Virus record (IMG/VR): IMGVR_UViG_3300028549_000279
Source of the DNA: a virus
Length of the DNA stretch: 49,232 nucleotides
Reading direction: 5' to 3' (one strand)
Shown: one piece after another, positions 1-49,232 of the stretch
How positions within the stretch are numbered: the stretch's first letter is position 1
Layout: every line of letters starts with the position of its first letter
Position numbers and translations under genes: made by a program
Notes under the pieces: model-generated
Told to the model about the DNA's origin: nothing
The model's database searches: none
What the model saw: only the letters and a program-made list of their open reading frames with translations

Positions 1-255
1 CAATCATTAGATATTGTACACTTAACAATTGCCTACCACAAGGAGCACCGACCTCTCCTTTCTTAGCAAACCTGGCTATGCAAGGTTGTGATACAGAGAT
101 TACAGCGTACTGCAAAAGACTAGGACTTACCTACACACGCTACGCTGATGATATTTTAATCAGTAGCCCTGTTAAATTTAAAGCAAATGAAGTAGCAGAA
201 GCTATATCTACTATCCTACTACGGAAAAACTTATCTGTTAATCGTGATAAAACAC
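1..255. repeat. Terminal direct repeat; nt 1-255 are identical to nt 48978-49232 (circular closure or terminal redundancy; unique length about 48977 bp)
   Basis: Base-by-base comparison of the first lines (caatcattagatattgtacactt...cgtgataaaacac) with the last lines of the window shows an exact match at offset 48977. Confidence 0.95.
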
Positions 256-515
256 GCTTCGGCTCATGTAACGGACGTAATTGGAATCTTGGGTTAATGT
301 ATAACAAAGATGAAGACATAACCGTAGGTTATAGAGCTAAAAAGTTAATGAAAAATAAGTTGCATAATATAGAATCCAGAGGGTATACTAATAAGGAACT
401 TCATCAATTCAGAGGATTACTTAGCTACTACAATGGTATTGAGCCTGCTTATTTTGCACCTTATTTAGAACGTGCTAAAGCATTACCATTACATCCAGAA
501 CCAGAAACAGAATAA
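1..515 (+). CDS. Retron-type reverse transcriptase, C-terminal part (continues 48413..49232 across the junction; codon phase starts at nt 3)
   Basis: The frame is open from nt 3. It contains LPQGAPTSPFLANL (RT motif 4), YTRYADDILIS (YxDD motif 5) and LSVNRDKT (motif 6). It is in phase with the ORF that starts at 48413. Confidence 0.9.
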   Translation, partial: IIRYCTLNNCLPQGAPTSPFLANLAMQGCDTEITAYCKRLGLTYTRYADDILISSPVKFKANEVAEAISTILLRKNLSVNRDKTRFGSCNGRNWNLGLMYNKDEDITVGYRAKKLMKNKLHNIESRGYTNKELHQFRGLLSYYNGIEPAYFAPYLERAKALPLHPEPETE

Positions 516-668
516 TGATACAGTCGCAGATTTATCCAAAACCGCAGCAACATGCTGTCATATAGGATGGCATCTAATTAGGTTAGATGTATTACGTTGT
601 TCAAAAGTTACTATGTACCTCCTCCACATGGAGGCGTACATGATACATGGACTGTATAGGAGAAACAA

Positions 669-824
669 ATGAACCAATCAGAACGAAATCTTTTAGCAAC
701 ACTCAGCTTAACCTTTAGTAAATCTTGGATACAAAGAGCATCTAAACACACTCTAAAACAAGTAAAGGCTCAGTTGGTAGAAATTATTAATCTAATCAAC
801 CAAATATTGGAGGAAACCAAATGA
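669..824 (+). CDS. Hypothetical small protein (51 aa; MNQSERNLLATLSL...)
   Basis: ATG at 669 is preceded by AGGAG. The stop TGA overlaps the ATG of the next gene (ATGA at 821-824). It is below the ORF-track length cutoff. Confidence 0.5.
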   Translation: MNQSERNLLATLSLTFSKSWIQRASKHTLKQVKAQLVEIINLINQILEETK

Positions 825-1246
825 AGAAACAAGACCTAAGAGAACTGTTGGTTAATGGAAGTACTGTAGTTACTGCAGACCATGACATCTATATGGTAGT
901 GTACAGCGACCTTTTTGAAACTAATCTATTAATTTCCACAGAATCTGGAAACTACCTTGAAGTAGGTGTTGTAACAGAAGATATGTACGTACATGAAAGT
1001 AAAGTTCCAGATTCTAAGATAGTATTAGTCTTCCCTAAAGAAGCAGCAATAATCGAAAAAGATATAGTACGCATCAAAAAAGATGCAGTACCAACCTACG
1101 ATATACGCAATGAAATATCTGAAATAAGTGCGTGTACAGTGTGTGCTAAACAAAACTGTGATAGACGTAAAGAGCTAGAAACAACTGATAAAGATAGAAA
1201 TGCTGAGATGCTTTTAAAATTACTCAGCGCATTAGTAAGAGAATAA
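821..1246 (+). CDS. Hypothetical protein (141 aa) between the RT and the structured element
   Basis: GGAGGA lies 7 nt upstream of the ATG, which is translationally coupled to the 669 ORF. No motif recognised apart from a CxxCxxxxC cluster near the C-terminus. Confidence 0.6.
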   Translation: MKKQDLRELLVNGSTVVTADHDIYMVVYSDLFETNLLISTESGNYLEVGVVTEDMYVHESKVPDSKIVLVFPKEAAIIEKDIVRIKKDAVPTYDIRNEISEISACTVCAKQNCDRRKELETTDKDRNAEMLLKLLSALVRE

Positions 1247-1260
1247 GTTTCGCCATATGT

Positions 1261-1495
1261 TACGCAATAGCATATCGTCATTCAGTTTAGATTTATCTAA
1301 GCCATGACCAAGCTAACTAAGTTAGCTTGTACAACAACGTGAGTACAGATGTTTATTGCCTCCTGCAGTTAACAGGTAACCTGGAGCTGCTGGAGATGAT
1401 ATTCATACTGGAAAACCGTCCTCTATCATCTCCAGCAGCTCCAGGTTACCTGTTAACTGCAGGAGGCAAACACACACGGATAATTGTATTGCGTA
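1261..1495 (+). ncRNA. Candidate retron-like msr/msd noncoding RNA (hypothesis)
   Basis: TACGCAATA (1261-1269) and TATTGCGTA (1487-1495) form a 9-nt inverted repeat, and G1270 sits in an A-G-C context right after the 5' repeat. Two short hairpins (1285-1302, 1309-1329) are followed by a perfect 45-bp stem (1356-1469). It lies on the same strand as the RT and about 750 nt downstream of it. Confidence 0.35.
1356..1469. repeat. Perfect 45-bp inverted repeat with a 24-nt spacer (long hairpin/cruciform)
   Basis: Arm 1356-1400 (ttgcctcctgcagttaacaggtaacctggagctgctggagatgat) is the exact reverse complement of 1425-1469. The loop is 1401-1424. No T-run follows on either strand. Confidence 0.97.
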
Positions 1496-1524
1496 TTGAC
1501 ACAACTTTAAAAACAGAATACTAT
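1496..1524 (+). promoter_or_regulatory. Sigma70-like promoter for the replication-gene block
   Basis: TTGACA (1496-1501), a 17-nt spacer, then TACTAT (1519-1524). It sits about 20 nt upstream of the GGAGG/ATG of the 1544 gene. Confidence 0.45.
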
Positions 1525-1543
1525 GATAGTTGGAGGTAATTGC

Positions 1544-1957
1544 ATGACAGAATATGAGCGCATACGCCTATACGAAATAGTGTTTTGTAACTTCATCATA
1601 GAGTTAATGAAAACAAACTCTAATCCAATTAAACTATATGATTATATAGAAGCAACCTGTGGATTAATCGACGGTAACAAAACAATAGCAAACAGCGTAT
1701 TACAAACCATCTTTAGCAACGATAGGCAGTACATGCCTACAAAGGAAGAATACCTCTATCTTTTAGTACGTACTAATCTACCTGTGAAGAAAGCATGTGC
1801 ACGTGGACACATCTCTATGTCAACTTATTACTACTATAAGAATCTAACAATGTGTATACGTCCACGATTTAAACCAGCACAAACTGATTTGATTATAAAT
1901 TTAATCAATCATATGCTATCTGTAACAGACCTAATCGAAAGGGGAATACTTGAATGA
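1544..1957 (+). CDS. Hypothetical protein, possible HTH DNA-binding protein (137 aa)
   Basis: GGAGGT lies 7 nt upstream of ATG 1544; the track start at 1523 falls inside the -10 box. PVKKACARGHISMSTYYYY resembles an HTH segment, but this is weak. Confidence 0.55.
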   Translation: MTEYERIRLYEIVFCNFIIELMKTNSNPIKLYDYIEATCGLIDGNKTIANSVLQTIFSNDRQYMPTKEEYLYLLVRTNLPVKKACARGHISMSTYYYYKNLTMCIRPRFKPAQTDLIINLINHMLSVTDLIERGILE

Positions 1958-2367
1958 ACATTCCGTTTACATCGCACACCTTACGGTATTGTCAAGACCA
2001 ATGGAACTTACTGCCAGCTGAACAACGTATTACATTATCACAATACGAATTAGCATTAATGACAGACATTGATGAACCAGATATCTGGCTACAATTTCTT
2101 AGAGAGCCTCGTGTGTCTGAAAAGATACGAGAAGAACTACAAGTATATAAAGAATCACAACAGCGTAAATTGATTGCACGTGCAACTACACACGATAAAT
2201 CAATAGGAACTGCACAGATGATTAATGCTTTAGGTAAATCAATGGAAGATAACGCAGGAAAAAGTGGTGATGTTATTATTTATTCCTACGTGCCTATGAA
2301 CTTACGTGAAGCAAATGCACCAAACGCAACTGCAGAAACCACAGACATCTTTGAGACAGGAGAATAA
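1954..2367 (+). CDS. Hypothetical protein (137 aa)
   Basis: The start overlaps the previous stop (ATGA) and an AAGGGG RBS is present. No motif recognised. Confidence 0.6.
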   Translation: MNIPFTSHTLRYCQDQWNLLPAEQRITLSQYELALMTDIDEPDIWLQFLREPRVSEKIREELQVYKESQQRKLIARATTHDKSIGTAQMINALGKSMEDNAGKSGDVIIYSYVPMNLREANAPNATAETTDIFETGE

Positions 2368-2370
2368 CAA

Positions 2371-2589
2371 ATGCCTAGTTTGTATCTTGATAGAGAGTGG
2401 GCGTTTGAAAAGGTCTGTCCAGTATGCGGCAAGCGTTTTTATATTACGCCCGATTGGGTTTATAAAACAACTGTACGAATTAAACCAAGACAGTATGCAC
2501 TGAAATATCAGTGCTCTTATTCTTGCTACAAGGTTATGAAACCAGAGGATAAAGGAGGTGCACACGATGTCACAGGAAGTGAAGCGTGA
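2371..2589 (+). CDS. Small zinc-ribbon-like protein (72 aa)
   Basis: An AGGAGA RBS is present, and the protein carries CPVCGK...CSYSC cysteine pairs. Confidence 0.55.
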   Translation: MPSLYLDREWAFEKVCPVCGKRFYITPDWVYKTTVRIKPRQYALKYQCSYSCYKVMKPEDKGGAHDVTGSEA

Positions 2590-2758
2590 ATATGTAGATT
2601 ACTTAGAACGACTGCAAATGTGTGGTATTAATAAAGATAAATCTTTATTAGAACTGCACCAAACAGCACTAGCAAAAGAAATCGCACTATCATATGGAGT
2701 GTCAGAAGATGAATACAATAGCCTCAGTACAGCCCTTGCTGAACTACAACCAGCTTAG
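2567..2758 (+). CDS. Hypothetical small protein (63 aa)
   Basis: AAGGAGG lies 8 nt upstream of ATG 2567; the track's GTG at 2558 lies inside the RBS. Confidence 0.45.
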   Translation: MSQEVKREYVDYLERLQMCGINKDKSLLELHQTALAKEIALSYGVSEDEYNSLSTALAELQPA

Positions 2759-4109
2759 AGATTACCAACAACATAATGTAGATTTTATAATGCAACGTAA
2801 AACGGTCGGAGTATTTAGCCAGCAAAGAACTGGTAAGACTCCGACTGTTTGCGTTGCTCTAAATGAACTAGACTGTACCAGAGTAGTTATTGTATGCCCT
2901 GCATCATTACGATTAGCATGGCGCGATGAATGGCACAGATGGACTGGTGGTACAGCAAGTCTTGAAACTAATCCAGAAGTAATTGCAAAACAAATATACA
3001 CTCCAGAAATTACAGCTATAATCTGTAGTTACGAGAGAGTACGAGGACGTGGTAAAAATGACGATACCTTTATCAAAGCCTTGATAAAAGCTAAACCAGA
3101 TGCCGTTGTTTTAGATGAAGCACATCGTATGAAAAATAGAAAAAGCCTAACTTATCTAGCATTAAAAAAGCTAAATAAGATTCCTATTAGGATAGCTATG
3201 ACTGGTACACCAGCACCTAATAAACCTTGGGATGTGTGGACTATTCTTAATTGGTTAGCCCCTACAGTATATAGTTCTTACTGGAGATTTATTGATACTT
3301 ACTTTACAACAGAAGAAAAGTATGTAGGACGTGATGTGCACAGCTCACCAGTAAACTACATCCCTGGTATGGAAGAAGTATTACAACTCAACCTTAGCAT
3401 ATACTGTGTACAAGATAAGCGTAAAGATGTTATGCAATGGTTAGGAGAAGAACCAGAGCCTACGATAATCCGCTTAGAGTGTCACCCCAAACAAAGAGAA
3501 GCTATTAATTCGATGATGGATTATTACAGCTATAAGAATATTGTTACAAAGTCAGACTTAGACAATATGACTAGAGTTAGGCAGTTATGCAGTGACCCTA
3601 AAATTCTAGGAATAAATATTACAAGTCCTAAAATAATATGGGTGAAAGAATATTTAAAAGATTATCCAAGCCAATCTATATTAATTTTTAGTCACTCTAA
3701 AAAGTTTCTATTTAATCTTATGGATGAACTGTACGGTATAAGACGTGGAATAATATGCGGAGATGTACCCCAAGAACAAAGAGAAACTATCAAAGCACGC
3801 TTCCAAGATGGTACAATAAAAGTTCTTTTACTACAAATACAAGCCGCAAAAGAGGGATTGACTTTAGACCAAGCTGATGTTAGCATCTTCTTAGACGCCT
3901 ATCCACCAGCTGCAGATTACGCGCAAGCTAAAGACAGAATGGTAGCCACAGTTCCAGAGAGGGCTAAACCAAAAATGATAATCCATACCATGATGGCAGA
4001 CACTTACGATGAACAATTATTCAATCTCGTAGACCATAACATCGCAGTGACCGCTGTTGTGAATGATTATAAATCATATCTTAATAAAAGGAGGCAACAA
4101 AATGGCTAA
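2709..4109 (+). CDS. SNF2/Rad54-family (SF2) helicase
   Basis: Motifs seen: SQQRTGKTPT (motif I), VLDEAHRMKN (DEAH, motif II), MTGTPAPNK (motif III), LLLQIQAAKEGLTLDQA (V) and QAKDR (VI). The start is ambiguous; ATG 2709 has GGAG 8 nt upstream, and 2694 is also possible. Confidence 0.85.
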   Translation: MNTIASVQPLLNYNQLRDYQQHNVDFIMQRKTVGVFSQQRTGKTPTVCVALNELDCTRVVIVCPASLRLAWRDEWHRWTGGTASLETNPEVIAKQIYTPEITAIICSYERVRGRGKNDDTFIKALIKAKPDAVVLDEAHRMKNRKSLTYLALKKLNKIPIRIAMTGTPAPNKPWDVWTILNWLAPTVYSSYWRFIDTYFTTEEKYVGRDVHSSPVNYIPGMEEVLQLNLSIYCVQDKRKDVMQWLGEEPEPTIIRLECHPKQREAINSMMDYYSYKNIVTKSDLDNMTRVRQLCSDPKILGINITSPKIIWVKEYLKDYPSQSILIFSHSKKFLFNLMDELYGIRRGIICGDVPQEQRETIKARFQDGTIKVLLLQIQAAKEGLTLDQADVSIFLDAYPPAADYAQAKDRMVATVPERAKPKMIIHTMMADTYDEQLFNLVDHNIAVTAVVNDYKSYLNKRRQQNG

Positions 4110-5070
4110 TCAAAACATGGCTAGTGTACTGGATTTTAGAAATTCCACACGCCAGCAATCCAAAGCCAGCATCTTAATCGAGGGGCTATCTGGACGAGGT
4201 AAGTCTGGACTTGCGCTGTTATTAGCGCGTGCATTTGCATCGGGCTGGGATAAAGTCTACGCGATTGACACAGAGAATAAGTCGTTAGATTTATTTGATG
4301 GGTTGAAAATGAGTTCTGGTTCAGACTGTAAGAGTTTTAAAAAGGTAGACTTACTACCTGCGCATGGGTACGCCCCATCAAACTATCTGTTATGCAAAGA
4401 CAATGCAATCAAAGCAGGTGGTGAAGTAATTATTAATGACAGCATCACTCACATGTGGCAGCAACAAGGTGGCGTGCTAGACCTGGTAGCAAAAGCACAG
4501 GCTAACAACAGCCGTCTTAACAACTATACAGCATGGGGCGCAGATGAAGTTAAAGCGGAGAAACAGGCAATCTACGCTACGCTCAGAGATGCACGCATCC
4601 ATGTAATCAGCACCGTCCGAGTGAAAGAGAAGTTTGAGATGGTTCCAGGAGCTACTGGTAAACTAGAATTAAACTCTCTTGGTGAACAGGAAATGCAAAT
4701 GCCTGACCTTAAATATGAACCCGATTTAGTTCTGCAAGCCATTAGACCAGGCGCAATGAACGGAACCCCACCACGTGCACGTGTGGTTAAATCCAGATAT
4801 GCTGTGTTACAAGAGGGTGAGACTTATGAATTCAATGAAGTCATTATCCAGACTCTTGTAGATTATCTGAAAGAGGGCGTAGACCCACAGGAATTGTTGG
4901 AAAAACAGCGTGTCAATTACATCGAAACTATTCAGAGTATTCTGGATAAAGATGTAAGCAAAAGAACCATGTTCCCTATGTTGAAAGAACAGCAGGGACA
5001 CAAAGAAACCAAGTTAACCGATATGCCATTAGATGTATTACAAACACTACTTGGCATACTACTAGCGTAG
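4102..5070 (+). CDS. AAA_24/Sak4-like RecA-fold ATPase
   Basis: AAGGAGG RBS before ATG 4102. Walker A is GLSGRGKSG and Walker B-like is VIINDSITHMW. It sits directly before a DUF669-like gene, as in many Firmicutes phage replication modules. Confidence 0.75.
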   Translation: MANQNMASVLDFRNSTRQQSKASILIEGLSGRGKSGLALLLARAFASGWDKVYAIDTENKSLDLFDGLKMSSGSDCKSFKKVDLLPAHGYAPSNYLLCKDNAIKAGGEVIINDSITHMWQQQGGVLDLVAKAQANNSRLNNYTAWGADEVKAEKQAIYATLRDARIHVISTVRVKEKFEMVPGATGKLELNSLGEQEMQMPDLKYEPDLVLQAIRPGAMNGTPPRARVVKSRYAVLQEGETYEFNEVIIQTLVDYLKEGVDPQELLEKQRVNYIETIQSILDKDVSKRTMFPMLKEQQGHKETKLTDMPLDVLQTLLGILLA

Positions 5071-12571: not shown

Positions 12572-12600
12572 AGAAGCAGCTAAAAGCTGCTTCTTCTTGT
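12572..12600. terminator. Bidirectional rho-independent terminator at the convergence of the two arms
   Basis: agaagcagct/agctgcttct forms a 10-bp stem (12572-12581 / 12585-12594). T-rich runs follow on both strands. It overlaps the stop codon of the giant ORF. Confidence 0.6.
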
Positions 12601-15600
12601 TTGGTATTTCATTTTGTTCTTGATTTCATTTCTACGTAACCTTGTGATAGAAGCATTACTATAGGAATTCCATGCATTACTACGTATTGTCATACGTGAT
12701 AACCCATACTTAGCGTACATCTCTCGGTACATATTCTTACGATTGCTGTGCGCTACATTTCTGTATGAGGCAGGTAGCCCACTTGCCATACCCAAAACGG
12801 TACGTGTGCGGTTATATCCCAGGGTTATCTTTTGTGTAGTCTGCGCACCAAACTTATGCCCACGTCTTGAATTGGTTGCTGAGTATGTTCTACCAAAGCT
12901 CCGCTTGTTCTTGAAAGGTTTTCTTTGTTTTTTAAACCGTGCTTTATAGTTATTTACAAATCTTCGATTCGGTCTACGTACACGTCTAGGTTTCTTCAAA
13001 CCTTTCACATTGATTATCTTAGCACCACCACTAGGTGTGGCTAGAGAAAGGTAAGCTCCCTCTTTTATCATGTTCATTATCGTTGCTTTATCGTATCCTT
13101 GTGCTTTCAAGTATGCATACGTTCTACTGTACGCACCTTTCTCAAACTTGATATAGTCTGGTAAGCTGTCATAAAATGCTTTGAATGCTGCATCTTTATC
13201 TGTCTTCATCTTGTCTATATCTTTCTGAGAATACAGTACTAACTTACCATTTGCATCTACATCCACATAATTTTTCAACATGTAAGATTTTGCATCTTCG
13301 TAAGACATTCCCTCTTTGTCCATTAAGTGTCTCAAGATACGTTTGTACGCACCTTTTTCATACTTAATGTAGTCTGGAAGTTTAGCAAAGTACGCTTGAA
13401 ACTCAGCAATTTCTTCTGGAGTTAATGCTCCCCACTTCTGAACTCCTTTTGATTTAAGACCTCTACAATCTATTAGTCTGCCATCTACTGTAAGATATGC
13501 GCCATCTTTTATCATGGCTTTAGCTTCCTCACTGCTTGCTCCATTCTTAGTGAGCCAACTAATTGTTCTACTGAATGCACCTTTTTCGTACTTGATATAC
13601 TCTGGTAAATTGTTGTAGTACGTCTTAAATTCTGTACTACTTGTTGCTTCTTTAGCTGCATTCTCTGCGTCAGTGTACGTAACTGCTTTACCTTTTGGGT
13701 CTACATAGAAATGATTAGCTGTGATATAATCTCTAGCCTGGTCTATGTCTGCAACAATTCCATTGCCTATAAGATATGCAATTGTTCTAGTGGATGCACC
13801 TGGTTCATACTGCATCCAGTCTGGAAGTCCATTCATATATTCAATGTACTCTGTGTTTAACGATGAAGTTAATTCATCAGCCTGTGTTTGTGTCAGGTAG
13901 CGTACATCACCTTGTTCATCAATGTACGGATTCTGTGTGGACATAAGATTCCACATCTGTTCAACTGTATACCCTTGTGCTTTGTACCATGCTTTCAACT
14001 GTGCGTACTGTCCATCTTCATATTTAATATAGTCTGGAAGCATGTCATATTTCTTTAAGAAAGCAAGGTTACGAATTCTATCATCTACTTCTTCGATATT
14101 TGTTGCACCCAGCCATACCCTCTGAATGAGCCTAATGGCTTCATCTGCGGTGTAACCTTTATCAACCAAGGATTCTAAGGCTGCGTTGATTTCATCGTCC
14201 TTATACTGGTATTCCTGTGGTCTGGGAGTGCCGAACATCCAACTAAGAATGTGCCCAACTTCTTCTTCCTCATACCCCATCTTTGTATATAACCCATAGT
14301 AATCTACATACGTCTCTGGGTTTTTAGTGAAGAAGCTAGGTACAGCTGAAATACCAAATACATATCTGTGTGTCTTTTTGTATTCATCTGTTTGTTCATA
14401 CCAGTTTGTACCTACAGGTCTGTCCATGTAACTTTGTTTATCACTAACTGTACCAACTACACTAGGCATTACCATACCGAGAACATCAAACAATGACTCA
14501 GATAATCTGTAGCCGTATTCGTTTTGTAACTGTGGATTAGTATTGATAGCCTGGAGGTCAGCTACACTAAGGTTTCCAGTTTTTAAATGTGTCATAGCTA
14601 AGTTTACCAGTCCTCCTAAGAGTGGTACTAAATCAAAGAGGTCATAGTAATTCTCACGTAACACTTCATCCCAGTCTGCACCCTCACCCATTAACATATA
14701 TGGTATTACTTTTTGTAATAGTGTTGAGATAGGTGCGTAAATATTATCTGCAAAGATGCTAGGCACTTGTCCAGATAACAATTCTGGGATTGCCATAAAC
14801 ACACTCTGCACCATACTAAGTGCATCTACAAAAGTGTTACCAGCTTTCAGTACATGATTCTTACCTAGTGCTATATTACCACCGTTCTCAGAGTAAAGTG
14901 ATGGGACACCTGTGTAGGCGTTAATTACACTACTGAGAAATCCAGGGTCTTCTGTATCTTCTTTGTTATCCTGGTAGTTTAATTCTCCACTTGCAATCTT
15001 TTCACGCAGTGCAATATTCCTATTCATCAGCATGAGTTCTTCTGAATCGTATTCAAGCTGTGCAGCTCTGCCGTATTTTGTCATGGTTCTAATTGCATTA
15101 AATCTATTAGGTGCATCGAACATCCAGAATGCTGTGTTGTAAATCTTAAATGTGCTAAATGGAAACAGAGTTTCTATAATATCCATACCTAAACTACGAT
15201 TTGAATAGTCAAACTGTGAAGCGATTACTTCCTGGTTAGCTCTATTCATAGACATACCAAACTTATCTGCGTAATACATAGCCATTCCTGTACGAGTTAC
15301 ATCTTCTGCAGCACTAAACTGTGCTTTGTTGAAGTTTAAGTATCCACTAAGGGCTTTCCCTGCAAGTGGAATACGCTGAATCATCTCCATAGCCATATCA
15401 TTGGAGGGGATGTAGTAGATATACAGTTTAGAAAGTATCTCTACTTGCTCTGTAGTGTATAGTTTAGAGAGTTCTAATGCTTTACGAACTTCTTCTTTGA
15501 TGATAGCAGCTTCTTTTTTTACTTCGTGTGCGTGTTTGTTGAACACCTTTTGGTAAATCTTTTGTGCTGACTCTACTTCCTCATACAATACGTGTGATAT

Positions 15601-18600
15601 CTCACCAGCATCATCTAACACGGGACGTGGAGTGAATAGCGCACGCTCATGTTCTGGAATAAGTCCAACTAATTTACGTGATTGATTCTCTTTCATGTAG
15701 TCAATAGCTCCAGAAAAACCAGCTGCAGACGATTCTTTGTGTGCAAACAGCTGTGCAAAAGTATCAAAGTCAAGTTCTTTTAACTTAGCTGGGTTGTCAC
15801 GGTATTTATAAAAGTATTCGTGCACAATATCTCCAGTAACATTTCCATATTCTTCTAGCATATCTGCGTAGATTTCACCATATCTGTTGTTCATTTCTGT
15901 AGCATTGCCCATGTATTTGAATAATGCTACATCTCCTGCAGCTGCATATGCATTCATACCAGAACCTGCACGGTTTCTAAGTGCTGCACCAAATGGAACG
16001 CCAAACAGCCAGCCTAAACTACGTGTACTTCTAACACGTTGTGACCAGAGATTGTACATTTCCATCATGTGCACACGCGTGTCAGTTGCATTTTCTGCAC
16101 GCCAGTTTAATGTTTCACCTTTTGCAAATGCTTTCATCTGCATCAGCACTTCATTAGGTGTACAGATAACACGTGGGTCATTCATAGCATTAATAAAATC
16201 TCCATGGCTGTCTAACTTAATCTGTTTAATCTCCCAGATTTGTTCTCCATGTTTATTGGTTGCTATCTCACCTTTGTGTAATACATAACCATTGTTGATA
16301 AGAGAACGATTAACACTTCTAAAATCTGGCGCAATGTTACTAGCTTCAATCATGTGTCTTAAACTCTGTGTAGGGTTATCATACAGCGCAAAGTAATCTG
16401 TAGTAGCTTCTAAGTTATTACGCACATGATGAATACCTGCACCAATGTTACTAAGTACATTATCTGTGTAGTATGGATTTACCTTTTTAAAATCTGTTGA
16501 ATCTCCAATAATACTACACATAAAGGAATCATCAAACCATCTAAATCCAGAGCCAGAGTTTATAAGCCCAAGGTCTAGGTGGGCTTCTTGTGGGAACATT
16601 TCATAAATAGCATTAACAGCATCCTGTGTAATTACGTCACCAGTAGAAAAGTAATAATCAGCAGGCATGTACTTAGAAAGTTCATCTGTTAATTTTGTGT
16701 ATGCTTTGTGTGTGCGTGCTTCTTCAACAACATGCTGATAAAATTCTGCATCACTCATGTACAAACTAGCTGTCGCACTGCGTTTATAAATAGCTTTGAT
16801 AGCGCTTAACTTATCAAAAGGAATATTAGGATTTGCATTTGCACGTACTATGGCAGCTTTATATTCTGATATACCGTCTTCTAGCATCTTCTGTATACCG
16901 TGTTGGTGGTTCAAGTACCCACTAGGCACTACGGCTTTATCATAAGTTCTAAGGAATGTGTTAAGCTCAGAGCCTCTGAGTCCAGACATATCTTTGTATA
17001 TCTTTAGTACATTATCTTCGTAGCGTACAATAAGTTCGGTCTGTTCTTTTAATTCATCCAGCTTTTTATATAACAGATTAGTCATTCTACTATCATTGAA
17101 TATCTCTGCACGTGGATTAATAATAAGAGCATTCTTACAATTACGGATAACATGTGCTGTAAAGTCTGCGTTATTTAATGATAATACATTCATGGCTACG
17201 GTCTGCTTATGATTTTTAGAGAATGAACCAACCATACGTTTGTACTCACTAAACTGTTTACTATAAGTATTATTTTGTATAGCATTGAATACAGGGTTGT
17301 CATCGTGTATAGAATAATGTTCTGCCCGTGGTGCGTAAGAAGTAATACTATCAACGAAGTCCTTGAACGGAGTGTTCACTGTAGCAAATAAAGTACCTTT
17401 GATTCGTTCTTTAGGAGATAACATTCTGTTATCTTCATACAAACTATCTAATGTGGCAAGATATCCATCGAAAGAGTGCATCTGCTCTGCAAGCGTATCT
17501 AGTAATTCCATGTCAGCTGAGAATTCATTAGCCTGCGCAACTGGGCTTGCGTACCTTGATGCAACGATTTTAGCACGTGCACCGTCATAAACTACAGTTC
17601 TGCCTTTAGCACTTAATAAATCAGTAGCTTCTTGCACAAGAGAATCTACGCTGTATATTTTTGATTGTATATCTGCATCTAAACTAGCAACTAATTTAGA
17701 TGGAATACTTCTACGTAAATCAGCGCACACTGCGTAAAGTTGTACTTTATCCATACCTGTAATGTTTAATGCTTTTAATGCAAACAATTTATCATCATTG
17801 CCTGGAGTTTTCTGTGCAAATTTTTCAAACAGTTCTAAAAATATATTTGCGTAATCATGGTAGTCTTGTTCTGGGATTACTTCTGCTAACTCTGGGTATG
17901 CTACTTCATTGTACGTACGTTCAAGGTTAACAAGTAAACGCTGTACGGCTGAGTGATTAGGAGCGTAATCTGGAGCTACCTTAGCTAAATCAAACCACGC
18001 TTTCATGTGTACCATGTTAATGTCTGTAATTAAATTATAATTGAAATCATGTCCGATATTCTCACGTATTAAATTCATACAGTTTAATCTTACAGGCTTT
18101 ATCTTGTTACCAGACTCAGCTTCAACTAATTTACGTAGCGCATATTCATCTATGAATACACCATTTAAACCATCCATAGCTTCTGTGTTTGCATGGATAG
18201 AATTTCTATATGCCATTCTTAAATTCTTTAACTGTTCCTGTGCTGTATCTAATAATCCTGTTGGGAGCACCATGCCTTGTTGTAGTATTGGGCGTGCGCT
18301 GTCCATCTCTCTAATTAAGATTCCTATTGCGCCATCAATACCGTCTTCTGGAGAGGATACTAAACCAGCAACTGCTATATCATGCAGTGTGTTCTGCCCA
18401 ACACCGTGTTCTATTGCGTGTTCCATGGTATCTCTAAGTGCTGCTACTGTTTCTTTAGGGACAACTGGGATATGGTTTTCATGTCTGATAACATTGGCTA
18501 TGTCAATCATCATTGTTTCATGTACGTCCATAACGTGTCTACGTACCAGTAACTCTAAGTATCTATCCTGGTTATTACCCATAGTAGAGTTATTAAATCC

Positions 18601-21600
18601 AATGAAACGTAACTGTTTGCCCTCTTTACCAGCTTTAGTTTTAAGTGTGTACATATAATCATCAACCATACGTAAGTATTCATCTTCATCAACACCTGCG
18701 TGTGTATTAACAACTTGATTATACTGTGCAAGTGCGTCTTCAAATGAAACACCGTACACAGATTCAGTACTACCTTTAACAGCAAAAGGAATATCTGAAT
18801 TTCTAAATGTGCTGAGTTCTCCATCGACTTTGAATGAAAGCATAAAAGGAATCGTGTGTTTGTTTGTCATGGATGCACTGTACACAACATCTATATACTT
18901 ATCATCTGCATCTTCCAGTACTTCTATGATTCCTTTTTGGTTCACATCTGCTAAGAGTTCTTCAATCTTAGCAACATTCTGTGTAGTATCAACTGTGTTA
19001 CATCCTTTGCGCCATAGTTTAACACCGTCACCGTTAGGTGTTTGCATATGGTGTGTACCCATAATAAAATCTACAGCATTATCTACGACTGTATCTGTAA
19101 TCTTATCTGCTACACGTGAAATAGCACCAGGGGAGTTATAGTTCAGTTCATTGAATGCACGGTTGATATATTTAGCATTGCCAGCAATCGCATCTAAGAA
19201 CCCTGTGATAAACACTTTATCAACACCCTTGCTATCTAGTGCAAGTACTGATTTAAAAAGTTCTGTGTGGTTAGCGTATTCACACAATTTAACATACACA
19301 GTATTTAATGCGTGCACATATTCTTTATGCTCCTCTTTACCAGCCAGTACATACCCAGCTTCCCAAAGAGTATCATAACTAACCCCTTTATAATCAAGGA
19401 GTTCTGTAGTGTACTTCTGTAAATCTGGATTGTTAATATAAGCTGCTGATTTAGATAGTTTATCTAAATCAATACGGTACAACCTACTCAGACGTTCTGT
19501 ATCTAATGAACCATCTGCTGTCAAACAATCTTCAACACCATGCTTTAATGTTTCTAATACTTTGTCTGGTGTGATAGGAACGTTAGTCTGCTGTGTAAGA
19601 TTTGTTGCAATGGTTGTACATAAGTCACGCAGGTTGTTCTGAGTAAAGTCTGGCATATCTTCAAATGTATTTACTTCATCCTTAATAGGATTATGGTAAT
19701 TTGCCAGGGCTGTGTTGATACGCTGTGTCTCTATCTTATCTAGGTATGAATTAGTAAGTGCGTGTATTTTTATGTTGGACTCAGACAACTTTCTAAATGC
19801 ATCTTCTACTAACTTTCTACGTTCAGTAGAAACAGACATATACATAGCAGAAGTAAACGTATCAAACAATGTAGTAAGATTAGCGTGCGCTTCTTTAAAT
19901 ATAGCTGCTGTTTGTTGTTTAGACATAGTATTAAAATCATCTATTATAGAGTTGTATAGTGTCTTGTATTCCCCTACCATTCTGTTATAAGATGCTTTTA
20001 ATCCAGCTCCATTACCCTCATATGTAAATGTGAGCATTCTATAAGGAACATCAGTTAACGAGGACTGTATAACTGTGTGTGCTTTATCAGTGACATCTTT
20101 AAGCTCTTTCATTTTAGAGATACGTCCATCTGCACGCAGGATAACATATTTCTTTTGTAACTGTCTAAGCCTAGCGATAGCTGCATTATCAAACGTAGTC
20201 TTGTACAGCTCAATATTCTGTGTCATAAGTTTCAGATACTCTGGGAAACTCTGTACGTGCGCAAAGCTAGTTCCTTTAGTGAGGTCTGCGCAGTATTTAT
20301 CAAGTGCAGCTATTGTATTATCAGCTGATTTACCAGAACTCATAATACTCTGAAACGCAGTAAGCTCTATATTACTCTGGCGTTTTGCAATACCAGCAAC
20401 TACACTAGAAGTGTATTCATCTAGTATTTTGTTATCTAAAAGATGTGCTACACTATTTACTTCTTTAGAAACTAATTCTGCAGCAGCACCAAGCTGTATA
20501 GTGAGCACACTTTTAGACCCTCCAATAGCAAGTTCATTGGAAAGTTTATTACTGATACGCTCTGTAACACTGCCTATAATTTTTGCATTGGCAGGATTAA
20601 CAGCTGCTACAGTTGTAACAAGGTTTCTAATTCCTCTGAGTGTATCCCTAGCTAGTATAGGTGGAACTGATACGGCAAATAACATACTGTCTATTTTATT
20701 TAACACCTTTGGAACTGTTGATAAAGATGCTATAACTTTATAACTAGTTCCTAATGAAGTAGGTAAGTTATCTGCAGCCTTTGCAGCTGCTGTAGTGAGT
20801 GCAAGTTTTTGAGATTTGTGCGCATCCATAAATTTAAGTGCACTATTTTTAGGAACACTTTCTAAATGCTTTGCATATGTGAGTGGGTTTCTTGAAACAG
20901 AACTTTTGATTCCTTGCATAGCTTTCTTTAAGAACACATCCTGCAGTTGTTCCCCTTGCACTATAGCTGCGCTTATAATTTGTTTTGCATATTTAGAGAC
21001 AGCTAACTCAGATGCATCAATACCAGCGTCTGTCCAAGTAGCTCTAAGTACATCTTCTAACTTATTAACTGCTGTAGTTTGTCCAGAAGCTGCTACTTTA
21101 ATTCCTGCATTAACCCAGGTTGCTGGGTCAAACATAATCTCTAAAGCAAGCTGTGTAACAAACCCACTAGCTCCCATAGTTTCATCGCTTCTCCAAAGCA
21201 TATCATATTCATAAGATGGAGTTGTACCATTAGCACCCCAAGCATCCATCCAAGCGTTAACACCCATTCTGTCTGCTACAGTTAATTCCCCATGATTTGT
21301 TTTCGCATCTTCATATAACTTTTTTAAATTGATGTTATTCTTTAAGTTCTCTTTAAGAACCACTTCATCATTAGCCATATTAATACCTACAGCAAAAGGC
21401 TTCACTAAGTAATTACTAATATCAAAAGTTTCTGCAAGATTTACAAATACATTATTTAACATGATACCTGCAGCAGTACCTAGTAGGTTAGTGAACGCAG
21501 GAACACGCGCAGCTATAAAAGACTCTGTGGATATAGCAACCTGTTTTTGTGTGTCTGACAGGTTATCATATTTAGGGTCTTTATATTTTTCAATGATTTC

Positions 21601-22992
21601 ATTAGAAGCAAGTTTAGTAATATCTCCAGCTTCTTCCCAGTGGTCTGTTAAATAATTATATGGCTTTACTACAGACTGTGCAAACACAGAAAGTATATCT
21701 GTGATAACATTAGTGCCATTATCAACATCAAAAGCAGACCGAGATATTTGACGCACTAAAGCATCTTTAAAAGAATTGACTTGTTCAGCACTGTACATAT
21801 CGGACATGTAAATATCATTCTCTTTAGATTTCTTTTTAGCATTCTCAAATGTAATTGCTGCATCATTAATCTGTTTAAGATACGCTTCGTTAGGTAGTAT
21901 ATTGATGTTACCATCTTGTACGCGCCCCTCATACTGATTTAGGAGCGTGCGCTCGATTTTAGAAAGTCTATCGACATTTGTTCCAGGAATATTTCCAGCC
22001 TGTGCACGAGCCTTTAGAGTCTCGTAGAAAGCATATTCATCTGCACGCATTCCTTTAGCGTTTAATCTTTTGTTAGCTTCATCATATTTGCCTAACCATT
22101 TAGAGTATGCTTCTTTGTATGTGTTTGCACTATCATCATACATACCAGACACTACCTGTCTACGAGCAACTAAGGTCTGGTATTTATCATAGTCTTCTTG
22201 CTGTAATGTAAGTCCGTCCTCAGTTTGAATAGCAGTCTTTTGAATATTATCAAGTTCTTTATCCAGAGCTTCTATCTCTGTGATATAGTTCTTTGCTTTA
22301 TCTTCAAAATAACTACTACATGTATCCATGAGAATACCATATCTGGAAGTATCATCTTTTGCATCAGCATATTCATCATCTGGTTTAGCGTATTTATACA
22401 ACGAGAAAGAGCCATCCTTATTAGGGATAGCTATAACAACCTTATCTATATTAGAAATTCCACTGAGTCTTTCCTTTCCTATCGTTGGAAATTCTGAATC
22501 AGCATACCGTGTATTCTCTGTGAGTGCATCCCCATCATCTAAAAACCAAGTCTGGAGTGTGTTGTTATTTGCTGCATCCTGTATTCGTTTCTGTGCATCT
22601 GCAGTCACAGTGTTCACTTTAAACTTTGTGTTGTTGGACATGTTTGTTGGTGGTGTGTACACAGGTGCGATGTCTGGTTTAGTTACAGGAGTGTGTGCAG
22701 GCACACCTTGTACAGTTGTTTCTTTCTTAACTTTATTAATACCATCTTCAATATCAAGACGGTCTGTAAATACTCTGTGTTCAGCTGTTTCTAAGAAAGG
22801 ATTAGACTGTACTACTTGTTTCTTGCGCAATACTTTCTGCTCAATAGGGTCTGCTTGTTTGAACTGCTTAACCTTTTTTGCTGCTTGCTCTGCTTTGTAT
22901 TTATTAGAATAAGGTAAAACAGAGATAGCGTCCTTTTTAGGGACGCTACTTTTTGTTGCAAAAAGATTTGGCGTAGTCTTTTTACCACTCAT
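12580..22992 (-). CDS. Giant virion-associated protein (3470 aa); putative internal/ejection protein, function unknown
   Basis: A single uninterrupted ORF with an AGGAGA RBS, and the last gene of the late operon. It has C-terminal tandem repeats and a basic tail. I recognised no enzymatic motif. Confidence 0.9.
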   Translation of the reverse strand: MSGKKTTPNLFATKSSVPKKDAISVLPYSNKYKAEQAAKKVKQFKQADPIEQKVLRKKQVVQSNPFLETAEHRVFTDRLDIEDGINKVKKETTVQGVPAHTPVTKPDIAPVYTPPTNMSNNTKFKVNTVTADAQKRIQDAANNNTLQTWFLDDGDALTENTRYADSEFPTIGKERLSGISNIDKVVIAIPNKDGSFSLYKYAKPDDEYADAKDDTSRYGILMDTCSSYFEDKAKNYITEIEALDKELDNIQKTAIQTEDGLTLQQEDYDKYQTLVARRQVVSGMYDDSANTYKEAYSKWLGKYDEANKRLNAKGMRADEYAFYETLKARAQAGNIPGTNVDRLSKIERTLLNQYEGRVQDGNINILPNEAYLKQINDAAITFENAKKKSKENDIYMSDMYSAEQVNSFKDALVRQISRSAFDVDNGTNVITDILSVFAQSVVKPYNYLTDHWEEAGDITKLASNEIIEKYKDPKYDNLSDTQKQVAISTESFIAARVPAFTNLLGTAAGIMLNNVFVNLAETFDISNYLVKPFAVGINMANDEVVLKENLKNNINLKKLYEDAKTNHGELTVADRMGVNAWMDAWGANGTTPSYEYDMLWRSDETMGASGFVTQLALEIMFDPATWVNAGIKVAASGQTTAVNKLEDVLRATWTDAGIDASELAVSKYAKQIISAAIVQGEQLQDVFLKKAMQGIKSSVSRNPLTYAKHLESVPKNSALKFMDAHKSQKLALTTAAAKAADNLPTSLGTSYKVIASLSTVPKVLNKIDSMLFAVSVPPILARDTLRGIRNLVTTVAAVNPANAKIIGSVTERISNKLSNELAIGGSKSVLTIQLGAAAELVSKEVNSVAHLLDNKILDEYTSSVVAGIAKRQSNIELTAFQSIMSSGKSADNTIAALDKYCADLTKGTSFAHVQSFPEYLKLMTQNIELYKTTFDNAAIARLRQLQKKYVILRADGRISKMKELKDVTDKAHTVIQSSLTDVPYRMLTFTYEGNGAGLKASYNRMVGEYKTLYNSIIDDFNTMSKQQTAAIFKEAHANLTTLFDTFTSAMYMSVSTERRKLVEDAFRKLSESNIKIHALTNSYLDKIETQRINTALANYHNPIKDEVNTFEDMPDFTQNNLRDLCTTIATNLTQQTNVPITPDKVLETLKHGVEDCLTADGSLDTERLSRLYRIDLDKLSKSAAYINNPDLQKYTTELLDYKGVSYDTLWEAGYVLAGKEEHKEYVHALNTVYVKLCEYANHTELFKSVLALDSKGVDKVFITGFLDAIAGNAKYINRAFNELNYNSPGAISRVADKITDTVVDNAVDFIMGTHHMQTPNGDGVKLWRKGCNTVDTTQNVAKIEELLADVNQKGIIEVLEDADDKYIDVVYSASMTNKHTIPFMLSFKVDGELSTFRNSDIPFAVKGSTESVYGVSFEDALAQYNQVVNTHAGVDEDEYLRMVDDYMYTLKTKAGKEGKQLRFIGFNNSTMGNNQDRYLELLVRRHVMDVHETMMIDIANVIRHENHIPVVPKETVAALRDTMEHAIEHGVGQNTLHDIAVAGLVSSPEDGIDGAIGILIREMDSARPILQQGMVLPTGLLDTAQEQLKNLRMAYRNSIHANTEAMDGLNGVFIDEYALRKLVEAESGNKIKPVRLNCMNLIRENIGHDFNYNLITDINMVHMKAWFDLAKVAPDYAPNHSAVQRLLVNLERTYNEVAYPELAEVIPEQDYHDYANIFLELFEKFAQKTPGNDDKLFALKALNITGMDKVQLYAVCADLRRSIPSKLVASLDADIQSKIYSVDSLVQEATDLLSAKGRTVVYDGARAKIVASRYASPVAQANEFSADMELLDTLAEQMHSFDGYLATLDSLYEDNRMLSPKERIKGTLFATVNTPFKDFVDSITSYAPRAEHYSIHDDNPVFNAIQNNTYSKQFSEYKRMVGSFSKNHKQTVAMNVLSLNNADFTAHVIRNCKNALIINPRAEIFNDSRMTNLLYKKLDELKEQTELIVRYEDNVLKIYKDMSGLRGSELNTFLRTYDKAVVPSGYLNHQHGIQKMLEDGISEYKAAIVRANANPNIPFDKLSAIKAIYKRSATASLYMSDAEFYQHVVEEARTHKAYTKLTDELSKYMPADYYFSTGDVITQDAVNAIYEMFPQEAHLDLGLINSGSGFRWFDDSFMCSIIGDSTDFKKVNPYYTDNVLSNIGAGIHHVRNNLEATTDYFALYDNPTQSLRHMIEASNIAPDFRSVNRSLINNGYVLHKGEIATNKHGEQIWEIKQIKLDSHGDFINAMNDPRVICTPNEVLMQMKAFAKGETLNWRAENATDTRVHMMEMYNLWSQRVRSTRSLGWLFGVPFGAALRNRAGSGMNAYAAAGDVALFKYMGNATEMNNRYGEIYADMLEEYGNVTGDIVHEYFYKYRDNPAKLKELDFDTFAQLFAHKESSAAGFSGAIDYMKENQSRKLVGLIPEHERALFTPRPVLDDAGEISHVLYEEVESAQKIYQKVFNKHAHEVKKEAAIIKEEVRKALELSKLYTTEQVEILSKLYIYYIPSNDMAMEMIQRIPLAGKALSGYLNFNKAQFSAAEDVTRTGMAMYYADKFGMSMNRANQEVIASQFDYSNRSLGMDIIETLFPFSTFKIYNTAFWMFDAPNRFNAIRTMTKYGRAAQLEYDSEELMLMNRNIALREKIASGELNYQDNKEDTEDPGFLSSVINAYTGVPSLYSENGGNIALGKNHVLKAGNTFVDALSMVQSVFMAIPELLSGQVPSIFADNIYAPISTLLQKVIPYMLMGEGADWDEVLRENYYDLFDLVPLLGGLVNLAMTHLKTGNLSVADLQAINTNPQLQNEYGYRLSESLFDVLGMVMPSVVGTVSDKQSYMDRPVGTNWYEQTDEYKKTHRYVFGISAVPSFFTKNPETYVDYYGLYTKMGYEEEEVGHILSWMFGTPRPQEYQYKDDEINAALESLVDKGYTADEAIRLIQRVWLGATNIEEVDDRIRNLAFLKKYDMLPDYIKYEDGQYAQLKAWYKAQGYTVEQMWNLMSTQNPYIDEQGDVRYLTQTQADELTSSLNTEYIEYMNGLPDWMQYEPGASTRTIAYLIGNGIVADIDQARDYITANHFYVDPKGKAVTYTDAENAAKEATSSTEFKTYYNNLPEYIKYEKGAFSRTISWLTKNGASSEEAKAMIKDGAYLTVDGRLIDCRGLKSKGVQKWGALTPEEIAEFQAYFAKLPDYIKYEKGAYKRILRHLMDKEGMSYEDAKSYMLKNYVDVDANGKLVLYSQKDIDKMKTDKDAAFKAFYDSLPDYIKFEKGAYSRTYAYLKAQGYDKATIMNMIKEGAYLSLATPSGGAKIINVKGLKKPRRVRRPNRRFVNNYKARFKKQRKPFKNKRSFGRTYSATNSRRGHKFGAQTTQKITLGYNRTRTVLGMASGLPASYRNVAHSNRKNMYREMYAKYGLSRMTIRSNAWNSYSNASITRLRRNEIKNKMKYQTRRSSF
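12997..14040 (-). repeat. Five tandem in-frame repeats of about 56-76 aa (216-228 nt) within the giant ORF
   Basis: Each unit starts LPDYIKYE(D/K)G, LPDWMQYEPG, LPEYIKYEKG or LPDYIKFEKG. This is followed by an A(Y/F)SRT..(Y/W)L...G....A..(M/Y)I segment and a D..G(K/R/D)(L/A/V) segment. It corresponds to aa 2985-3332. Confidence 0.9.
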
Positions 22993-38342: not shown

Positions 38343-38390
38343 GGGGGTTTAGGAATATTATTAGGGGAAATAAAACGTAAGTTATTAGAG

Positions 38391-38410
38391 CAAAACAAAC
38401 AAACAAACAA
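38391..38410. repeat. (CAAA)n microsatellite
   Basis: The sequence is caaaacaaacaaacaaacaa. Confidence 0.9.
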
Positions 38411-38416
38411 TAACTC

Positions 38417-48412: not shown

Positions 48413-49232
48413 ATGTTTTTGAATTACTATTCTAAACCTCGTATTCGTACCACTGGTACGATGGAACAATTACAAAAGGAACTCCAATACAACCAGGGTA
48501 GGATTATTACTAAAACTGTGACCACACCAGGAGTAAACCAAACTACAAGAAATAAAGTAAGAAACACACTTTATAAATTACAAAATAAATTAAGAGAAAC
48601 TAATATTCAATTAGTAAACACTAATATTAGTGCGATGCCATCTATGTACCACCTTGTTAAGATACCAAAGAAAACAGGTGGGTACAGAGAGTTAATGGTA
48701 CCAGATGAAGAACTCAAAGAGTTTCAACGGATTATTTTAGATACTCTGCAGAATAAATTAAAAGTACTACCTCATAATGCGGCTCATGGGTTCACTAAGC
48801 ACAGAAGCTGCTATACAGCAATACAAGTACACCAACAAGCACACGCACGTTGGTTTCTAAAAATGGATATTAAAAACTTCTTTACAAGTGTACATACTGA
48901 ATGGTTATTATCAACACTACAAGAAAATGCTGCAATATGCATAATGAATGCAAGTACAGCACGCAATTTTGAAGACTCAATCATTAGATATTGTACACTT
49001 AACAATTGCCTACCACAAGGAGCACCGACCTCTCCTTTCTTAGCAAACCTGGCTATGCAAGGTTGTGATACAGAGATTACAGCGTACTGCAAAAGACTAG
49101 GACTTACCTACACACGCTACGCTGATGATATTTTAATCAGTAGCCCTGTTAAATTTAAAGCAAATGAAGTAGCAGAAGCTATATCTACTATCCTACTACG
49201 GAAAAACTTATCTGTTAATCGTGATAAAACAC
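48413..49232 (+). CDS. Retron-type reverse transcriptase, N-terminal part (open at the window end; continues at nt 3..515; 359 aa when joined)
   Basis: ATG 48413 has AAGGAGG 8 nt upstream. Motifs seen: KIPKKTGGYRELMVP (RT1), LKEFQRIILDTL (2), HNAAHGFTKHRS (NAxxH, 3), FLKMDIKNFF, LPQGAPTSPFLANL and YTRYADDILIS. It is absent from the ORF track because no stop falls within the window. Confidence 0.9.
   Translation, partial: MFLNYYSKPRIRTTGTMEQLQKELQYNQGRIITKTVTTPGVNQTTRNKVRNTLYKLQNKLRETNIQLVNTNISAMPSMYHLVKIPKKTGGYRELMVPDEELKEFQRIILDTLQNKLKVLPHNAAHGFTKHRSCYTAIQVHQQAHARWFLKMDIKNFFTSVHTEWLLSTLQENAAICIMNASTARNFEDSIIRYCTLNNCLPQGAPTSPFLANLAMQGCDTEITAYCKRLGLTYTRYADDILISSPVKFKANEVAEAISTILLRKNLSVNRDKT

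Follow-up and report, generated by a model that had tools for sequence, protein, structure and literature searches.

The DNA analysed here, a virus contig of 49,232 nucleotides (nt) from IMG/VR (record IMGVR_UViG_3300028549_000279; hereafter the window), carries a gene for a reverse transcriptase (RT) that is followed on the same strand by two structured elements, to which we refer as unit A (518..657) and unit B (1261..1495). The RT gene occupies positions 48413..49232 and 1..515 of the + strand, its 359-aa open reading frame (ORF) with a YADD active site spanning the 255-nt terminal repeat of the contig and resuming at position 256. Unit A starts 3 nt past the RT stop codon (513-515), and two overlapping ORFs, the second of which encodes 141 aa and ends at position 1246, separate it from unit B, which begins 15 nt later. 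Unit B had been singled out in an initial annotation, made from the letters alone, as a candidate for an element like the msr-msd non-coding RNA (ncRNA) of retrons, and the distances given there were reproduced.

Unit B is composed of a 5′ repeat a1 (1261-1269, TACGCAATA), a G directly after it (G1270), two short msr-like hairpins, a linker, a long msd-like hairpin, a tail (1478-1486, GGATAATTG) and the repeat a2 (1487-1495, TATTGCGTA), all on the + strand. The first short hairpin (1285-1302) consists of 7 bp including one G-U pair with a 4-nt loop and is nested in a helix formed by 1277-1281 and 1304-1308; the second (1309-1329) has 9 bp, CAAGCTAAC-TAA-GTTAGCTTG, with the loop TAA and a CTAAG apex, and is followed by the linker motif ACAACGT at 1334-1340. 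The 9-nt terminal repeat, G1270 and both short hairpins, including the 9-bp stem with its 3-nt loop, were found where they had been annotated. The perfect long stem is present as well, its two arms (1356-1401 and 1424-1469) being 100% complementary; only its dimensions had to be adjusted trivially, from 45 bp with a 24-nt loop to 46 bp, the arms being separated by 22 nt. The minimum-energy fold of 1247-1522 pairs a1 with a2 and reaches −132 kcal/mol, compared with −58.7 ± 4.9 kcal/mol for 200 dinucleotide shuffles (z = −15.1), and since none of these 200 was as good, a chance fold is excluded. For the complementary DNA (cDNA) predicted from unit B, which is the reverse complement of about 1336-1486, folding with DNA parameters gives −62 kcal/mol (z = −15.5). 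The segment had also been described as free of ORFs, which does not hold mechanically, as there is a 70-aa ORF with a TTG start at 1327-1539; nothing backs its status as a gene. An intrinsic terminator, already discounted in the initial annotation, was rejected here too, because no terminator-like site was found in 400-1700 and no T-run follows position 1469.

From its sequence, the RT is a divergent member of the retron clade. It matches Pfam RVT_1 (3.2e-32), and all of its 25 best models in PADLOC are retron RTs, with RT_II-A at the top (1.7e-58, residues 63-341). The NCBIfam model retron_St85_RT scores 209.5 bits (6.3e-62), whereas Drt2 and Drt3a reach 57-68 bits (1e-15 to 1e-19) and AbiA and the remaining models likewise lie far below retron_St85_RT. 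The best matches in the PDB are retron RTs as well (3.6e-30 to 7e-23), namely 9n69_E (3.6e-30), followed by Ec83, Ec78 and Ec86, compared with 2.4e-6 for DRT2 structures. The YADD active site is kept across 28 homologues (the A in at least 90%), in which 52 other columns are invariant. We call the RT divergent because its score lies below a curated cut-off and because the retron motifs NAxxH and VTG are only partly kept: in an alignment to solved retron RTs they read AIQVH (ALEVH in the clade consensus) and NLG. The H of NAxxH and the G of VTG are the most conserved residues of these motifs (PMC7736814), and the corresponding H156 and G302 are invariant in the RT clade. On the 5′ side of the RT gene, the gap to the preceding ThiF gene measures only 120 nt and contains no retron-like fold. 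A diversity-generating retroelement was considered and rejected, as instead of a template and a variable repeat of about 100 nt with A-specific differences, 1-3000 holds direct repeats that are at most 25 nt long and 70-88% identical, and the RT matches RTs of retrons rather than those of such retroelements.

Unit A follows the same plan. Its fold closes on a1 (518-525, ATACAGTC), which is followed by G526, and a2 (650-657, GACTGTAT), and in between lie msr hairpins at 544-558 and 570-590, a short msd hairpin at 613-641 and a tail at 642-649 (GATACATG). The unit, whose predicted product is a weak small hairpin, was also recovered by a scan of the whole window.

A search of IMG/VR with the single RT protein as query gave nothing, whereas an alignment-based scan was successful; 209 related loci (1.18 Mb) were used for the anchor test described below and 259 for the search for ORF homologues. 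More than 100 homologues of the RT are known to us, with 39-62% identity, many of them on contigs of ~48-51 kb, from uncultured phages of the rumen, digesters and the human gut. The synteny kept in this family starts with ThiF and the RT, continues after 580-650 nt free of genes with ORFs of 137 aa and 136 aa, and ends with SNF2, AAA_24 and an MCM-like primase-helicase. In the relatives L001-L004, L008, L085-L092, L120, L121 and L128 the gap 3′ of the RT gene holds 2-4 tandem units, the first of which begins 0-36 nt past the RT stop; relatives with such arrays have RTs of 39-50% identity. These units consist, in this order, of an a1 of 7-9 nt, a G that is usually followed by AAxA, one or two short hairpins, the last usually with an xCTAAGx apex, an ACAAYGT linker, a long imperfect hairpin, TATAAT(R)G and a2; the middle unit of an array has a short instead of a long hairpin, and the units measure about 100 or 205-250 nt. 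Unit B matches this order at every element. Altogether, the layout of a1, G, msr hairpins, long hairpin and a2 was seen in more than 45 units adjoining homologous RTs. The G after a1 is invariant (39 of 39 aligned units) and is preceded by an A in 38 of them; the A-G-C context that had been proposed for the branching G is not conserved. A perfect TATAAT is present in 34 units.

The association of units and RT extends beyond the closest relatives. More distant phage RTs (28-39% identity) are followed by a1-G units as well, which begin 1-10 nt past the stop in the case of RTs with 33-39% identity, and RT and units occur together in phages whose backbones, 45 to 120 kb in size, are unrelated. Between close relatives, units are gained and lost. 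On L010, a more distant RT-bearing phage contig, near-identical imperfect hairpins of ~42 bp lie 320 nt apart downstream of the RT (4017-4118 and 4337-4436), which looks like a recently duplicated unit. The separation of the two partners was examined in both directions. No RT without hairpin units was found among members of the clade with a full-length RT and enough downstream sequence, and in a search for RT-less siblings based on SNF2 the only close relatives both carry RT and units. Conversely, a gapped-pattern scan of IMG/VR for units without RT gave nothing, and among 90 chance matches of a 15-mer of tail and a2 in IMG/VR an a1+G partner was present only on a contig where it adjoins an RT. 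Both outcomes favour the retron reading. A search by nhmmer with a hidden Markov model of the 5′ module retrieved the close clade only and missed the window's own units, which indicates that the similarity of the units at the sequence level is weak.

The specificity of the layout was assessed with ATAAT(N)G as anchor. On the RT strand, 44 of 1052 anchors have a perfect 8-nt complement followed by G 70-300 nt upstream, compared with 5 of 944 on the other strand, and the base after a1 in the anchor-partner pairs is G in 44 cases, A in 10, C in 5 and T in 7. Units found without this anchor test, namely unit A of the window, unit 2 of L004, four units of L084, two of L209 and one of L259, also have a1/a2 and the G. 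Covariation was observed at several levels. In an alignment of the msr hairpins by MAFFT without structural input, 89.1% of the cells are paired versus 60.4% in shuffles and 28-46% in slid controls, and double-sided changes amount to 117 versus 38 in shuffles, a number that none of 500 shuffles reached. For a1/a2, whose lack of covariation had been named as grounds for giving up the retron proposal, double-sided changes occur at all 8 pairs in 39 distinct units (122 cells in total), most of these units having been selected for just this complementarity. RNAalifold finds both helices unaided in 12 short units, with compensatory change at 17 of 18 pairs. Among the five pairs of orthologous units that are closest to each other, double changes in the long hairpin retain the pairing in 26 cases and destroy it in two.

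The two parts of the units differ in the strand on which they pair best. The reverse complement of the msd part is the more stable one in 34 of 38 units (mean difference 5.2 kcal/mol, Wilcoxon 1.4e-6), and its 1x1 mismatches on the + strand are A.C in 13 cases versus G.T in 1, i.e. they become G.T wobbles in the sense of the cDNA; as A+C only slightly exceeds G+T, composition cannot explain this 13:1 ratio. The msr part shows no such strand bias (15 versus 23), and its hairpin cells on the + strand comprise 26 G.U versus 15 A.C. As far as sequences can tell, this pattern supports what a retron predicts, i.e. that the msr part acts as RNA and the msd part becomes cDNA of opposite sense.

Two further scans addressed the position of the units. 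[quoted passage not shown] In the construction of such models, MAFFT fails on the hypervariable stems, and a model of the short units cannot span the long ones.

From these results we conclude that 1261-1495 is probably one of two tandem msr-msd ncRNA templates located directly downstream of a phage-borne RT of the retron clade. The proposal of an msr/msd-like element downstream of the RT and on the same strand is supported by the clade of the RT, the more than 45 recurring units, the covariation, the cDNA-sense msd and the control scan of upstream and downstream positions. Taking established retron biochemistry as a model for priming, copying and termination (PMC7736814), the RT gene and the array would be co-transcribed on the + strand within the early/replication operon. 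Each unit would fold separately, the pairing of a1 with a2 enclosing the short msr hairpins, to which the RT would bind, and the long msd hairpin. Priming would occur from the 2′-OH of the invariant G after a1, i.e. G526 in unit A and G1270 in unit B, and copying of the RNA would proceed leftward from the nucleotide just 5′ of a2, at TATAAT(R)G, so that the cDNA would start with 5′-C(Y)ATTATA, run through the long hairpin and stop before the msr. Unit B would give rise to a cDNA that is roughly 140-150 nt long and contains a hairpin of 46 bp, unit A to a short cDNA of about 50 nt, and one RT serving several templates would yield a set of distinct hairpin DNAs per infected cell. Our best guess, held with low confidence, is that these DNAs act as decoy, in counter-defence or in another manipulation of the host, because the stems are hypervariable with the structure kept, no conserved effector is present and the genome looks virulent.

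Several observations weigh against the retron assignment. The RT score of 209.5 bits lies below the curated cut-off of retron_St85_RT (235), and the RT departs from the textbook motifs in the loss of N and A from NAxxH and of V and T from VTG. Nowhere in the window does Rfam, including its retron msr families, give a match at gathering score, and at E ≤10 it yields only generic long-hairpin (microRNA precursor) matches far below the thresholds. Although correctly placed, the covariance model hits of 0.32 and 0.9 are weak E-values, and the figure of 99.7% paired cells for a1/a2 is partly circular, since most units were chosen by complementarity. DNA template switching from arm to arm can produce compensatory change without any selection on RNA or cDNA, and the three strains with perfect stems described below point to it. 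No effector gene is recognisable among the neighbouring ORFs by PADLOC, Pfam, NCBIfam or PHROGs, and the gene order is the reverse of the one that defines retrons. Finally, we infer the multicopy single-stranded DNA (msDNA), its 2′-5′ branch and the priming G by analogy with studied retrons.

The alternative that survives best draws on the UG27 RTs of gut phages and prophages, which are accompanied by arrays of ~150-nt units, each copied into a hairpin cDNA with the help of two required accessory proteins (bioRxiv 10.64898/2026.09.22.753630, preprint of September 2026; first noted in PMC9226505). In a UG27-like array, a1/a2 and the G would serve folding or recognition instead of priming. The overall picture is shared, i.e. 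a phage-borne RT beside a variable tandem array of units with conserved structure, diverse sequence and a central hairpin; the long hairpin of the phage units is optimised in the cDNA sense, and the two small conserved ORFs that always lie 3′ of the array could be accessory factors. However, the RT is far nearer to retron RTs than to the UG/Abi representatives, its active site is YADD and not YSDD, the units measure about 100 and 205-250 nt versus 135-167 nt, and an invariant G right after the closing helix is a retron signature. Membership in UG27 was also rejected on the basis of the RNA: of 13 loci, 12 have no copy of the start motif AUCN7UANAG in their arrays, L008 has 2 matches at chance level, and a cluster of the motif is seen in none. 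We therefore regard a UG27-like array as unlikely.

The long stem of unit B has a peculiarity that gives rise to another, more far-reaching view. Among 46 units, unit B alone has a stem that is both long and perfect, the longest perfect run of the others being at most 17 bp. In two near-identical strains, L260 and L263 (93.5% and 95% identity to the window), a1, the G, the msr hairpins, the linker, the tail and a2 are almost identical to those of the window, and the stem interior differs at roughly 12-16 positions per arm, indels included, with each difference mirrored in the other arm, so that the stems are again perfect (44 bp in L260 at about 1397-1506, 45 bp in L263 at about 39-149). From the mirrored differences in three strains we conclude that the two arms change in concert, and compensatory change in long stems therefore need not mean selection on RNA. 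In unit A, essentially the only difference between L260 and the window is that a different hairpin takes the place of the first msr hairpin. An ordinary candidate for the concerted change is template switching from arm to arm during DNA replication (quasi-palindrome correction), an exotic one the re-entry of snap-back cDNA. Taken further, the RT and its multi-template array could be a generator of diversifying hairpin DNAs, in which snap-back cDNA or arm-to-arm templating re-enters the genome and keeps the stems perfect during fast change, with the msDNAs acting as decoys or inhibitors of host defences that sense DNA. We consider this rather unlikely; if true, it would mean that retrons can be used offensively, on the side of the phage, and that they include a route by which cDNA returns to the genome. 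Independent of its cause, the upkeep of such long inverted repeats by concerted change represents a separate puzzle.

Alternatively, the units could be structured RNAs of an early operon that are never reverse transcribed, such as RNase III sites, mRNA stabilisers or regulatory RNAs, in which case the proximity of the RT would be coincidental or regulatory. They do lie inside a co-directional operon between the RT and replication genes, a perfect duplex of 46 bp is an excellent RNase III substrate, and the covariation of a1/a2 and the msr hairpins shows selection on the fold of the + strand. Such RNAs would leave unexplained, however, why the long hairpin pairs better in the minus sense (34 of 38 units; A.C 13 versus G.T 1) without any such bias in the msr, why the G after a1 is invariant, and why the elements are strictly linked to a retron-type RT, catalytically intact by motif, across phage genomes of very different sizes. 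This explanation therefore appears improbable to us. Still less probable, and in our view very much so, are elements acting at the DNA level as extruded or single-stranded minus-strand DNA, be it as hairpins of replication origins or of single-strand initiation, as cruciform recombination sites or as packaging signals. Their location would fit, since the replication module with SNF2 helicase, primase-helicase and PolA follows immediately downstream, as would the frequent occurrence of tandem hairpins at origins; the minus-sense bias of the long hairpin is equally compatible with a hairpin in minus-strand single-stranded DNA, and concerted arm evolution is a DNA-level phenomenon. On the other hand, no known origin or packaging site is built such that a repeat pair like a1/a2 spans about 100 to 250 nt and encloses several hairpins and an invariant G, the msr hairpin tolerates G-U on the + strand, the elements accompany the RT in unrelated backbones of 45 to 120 kb, and 38343-39962 is a more ordinary candidate for an origin. 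The view that TATAAT(R)G is a promoter −10 box and the array one of promoters or operators is hardly credible and was dropped, since in spite of the perfect TATAAT in 34 units and of GGAGG ribosome-binding sites that would fit a host with sigma-A-type promoters, a −35 element (at least 4 of 6 matches at 16-18 nt) occurs in 3 of 34 units versus a background of 14%, a TG extension in 1 of 34, the box is in fixed register with a2 and not with a downstream gene, and a1/a2, the G and the hairpins are left unexplained. Because neither −35 elements are enriched nor a TG extension is found, TATAAT(R)G is more likely a fixed template start than a promoter.

Between units A and B, two overlapping + strand ORFs of 51 aa (669-824) and 141 aa (821-1246) with GGAG-type ribosome-binding sites fill the segment 669..1246. 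Both are present in the near-identical strain L260, have no homologue in the 259 related loci and no family match in PADLOC, Pfam, NCBIfam or PHROGs, and from the sequences compared we regard them as a lineage-specific insertion. A different ORF of 158 aa lies between units 2 and 3 of L084, and two ORFs lie between the RT and its unit in L259, a relative from the human gut. These three insertions indicate that the array is a landing place for cargo genes and that, ancestrally, it follows the RT without interruption. The ancestral order is thus an RT with 2-4 units directly behind it and not RT, two ORFs, ncRNA, which had been suggested as a new arrangement; in the window, the two ORFs sit behind unit A.

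Always 3′ of the array are two conserved small ORFs on the + strand, each of 137 aa in the window (1544-1957 and 1954-2367), neither of which has a family match. The second has homologues in 69 related loci, which are confined to this phage family, are without Pfam match and are 50-61% identical, versus 39-47% for the RT; its AlphaFold model is all-helical with a predicted local distance difference test score (pLDDT) of 73 and has no PDB match with E <1. Directly 3′ of a2 and ahead of the first of these ORFs, a sigma-70-like promoter match on the + strand (1496..1524; TTGACA, 17 nt, TACTAT) agrees with the consensus at 10 of 12 positions; judged by sequence, it may or may not be part of the system.

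On the 5′ side, the RT gene is directly preceded by a block of a 628-aa ORF (44829-46715), a 289-aa ORF (46728-47597) and a ThiF/E1-like ORF (47600-48292). The 289-aa ORF has a JAMM-like HxHx7SxxD motif (HGHSHVNMGVTPSGVD) and no Pfam match. The same order of genes (~490 aa, ~260-300 aa, ThiF, RT) is found in the rumen relatives L001 and L002 and also in the human-gut contig L259, whose RT is 28.6% identical; going by this gene order, the block may be functionally tied to the RT. An ORF resembling HNH homing endonucleases is located in the early region of the window (43485-43991), and in L001 (212-766) and L002 (146-712) such an ORF lies upstream of the RT block.

The first 255 nt of the window are identical to its last (48978-49232), from which we take the contig to be a circularly permuted or terminally redundant complete genome with a unique length of 48,977 nt. 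It encodes the gene set of a tailed phage (primase-helicase, PolA, RecE-like exonuclease, SNF2, TerL, portal and major head protein) and an endolysin-like protein. The ORFs that were scanned include no integrase, and the genome looks virulent. A scan for tRNA and tmRNA genes found none. Among GenBank phages, a DNA search gave no match and a protein search a best identity of 28.6%, which indicates that there is no cultured relative. As to the host, strong Shine-Dalgarno sites of the GGAGG type, for example at 48402-48407, 659-663 and 1535-1539, fit poorly with Bacteroidota, yet the relative contig L129 was binned in a metagenome-assembled genome of Paludibacteraceae. A single ORF of 3470 aa on the − strand (12580-22992), which has no Pfam match, recalls by its size the giant virion proteins of N4-like and crAss-like phages. 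Between the divergent blocks of structural (−) and early (+) genes lies an AT-rich, gene-poor region of 1.6 kb (38343-39962), which is rich in short direct and inverted repeats, for example GTATACGGWWCCATATACAGAA, which occurs twice, and a perfect 13-bp hairpin at 39707-39737, and which, as an origin or control region, would be a more ordinary candidate than the array.

Among known systems, the phage module resembles canonical retrons such as Retron-Eco1 (Ec86), the II-A Retron-Sen2 (St85) and the I-A retrons Ec78 and Ec83, with which it shares the RT clade and an ncRNA in which a1/a2 and the G 3′ of a1 are combined with short msr hairpins and a long msd hairpin. The dimensions agree as well, since in the retron layout the stems of the msr reach up to 10 bp and that of the msd 10-50 bp (PMC7736814). 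It differs from them in its organisation. An ncRNA upstream of the RT is the core organisation in surveys up to May 2026 (10.64898/2026.05.14.725207, section 16; PMC6868368), in agreement with the statement of the initial annotation that the ncRNA of known retrons is 5′ of the RT, whereas the phage ncRNAs lie downstream, those of the window 3 to about 750 nt past the stop. There are 2-4 different ncRNAs per RT instead of one and no recognisable effector, NAxxH and VTG are only partly kept in the phage RT, and the carrier is a complete, apparently virulent tailed-phage genome instead of a defence island on a chromosome or prophage. In our literature search, whose coverage is incomplete, we came across neither retron ncRNAs that lie downstream or form arrays nor retrons that are core genes of virulent-type phages. 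The data support the view that the system is a phage-borne retron whose organisation is reversed and comprises several templates, an arrangement which is conserved across a large group of uncultured phages and has not been described for retrons.

In the current understanding, a retron is a system by which bacteria defend themselves against phages and which combines an RT with one ncRNA upstream of it and an effector. If msDNA is made from the phage units, they would represent a phage-side retron biology outside current models, be it in counter-defence, in competition between phages or in replication, and the class will have escaped any survey confined to the region upstream of RT genes. Retrons on phage-like elements are known from the retronphage phiR73 (Retron-Eco3, Ec73) and other prophage-borne retrons (PMC6868368). 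Those are canonical msr-msd-RT accessory cassettes of temperate or satellite elements with one upstream ncRNA each, while the module described here is a syntenic component of the early/replication region throughout a phage family. Retron-Nex1 (Ne160) shares with it the presence of several msr-msd copies per genome, which in that case are dispersed duplicates without an RT nearby (PMC6868368), and engineered multitrons or retron arrays share the use of several ncRNAs per RT in a synthetic setting (PMC10370050). In contrast to both, the phage arrays occur naturally next to the RT and consist of units that have diverged. Provided that msDNA is formed, a small RT of about 345-360 aa would naturally serve tandem arrays, a natural counterpart of multitrons that would be relevant to multiplexed production of single-stranded DNA.

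The closest functional analogue of the phage system is the UG27 array, in which a phage-borne RT likewise stands beside a variable tandem array of structurally conserved, sequence-diverse units that are gained and lost between close relatives. The formation of cDNA from the units has been shown experimentally for UG27, whereas we infer it for the phage units. UG27 RTs belong to UG/Abi class 2, have YSDD, and act on units of 135-167 nt with a pseudoknot, the start motif AUCN7UANAG and the stop motif UUYA together with the accessory genes sORF and bORF, while the phage RT is of the retron clade, has YADD and is accompanied by units with a1/a2 and G; its active site and its scores for retron versus UG/Abi models are indirect evidence against membership in UG27. 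If the retron reading of the phage array is true, two unrelated lineages of phage RTs would have converged on arrays of templates for hairpin DNA.

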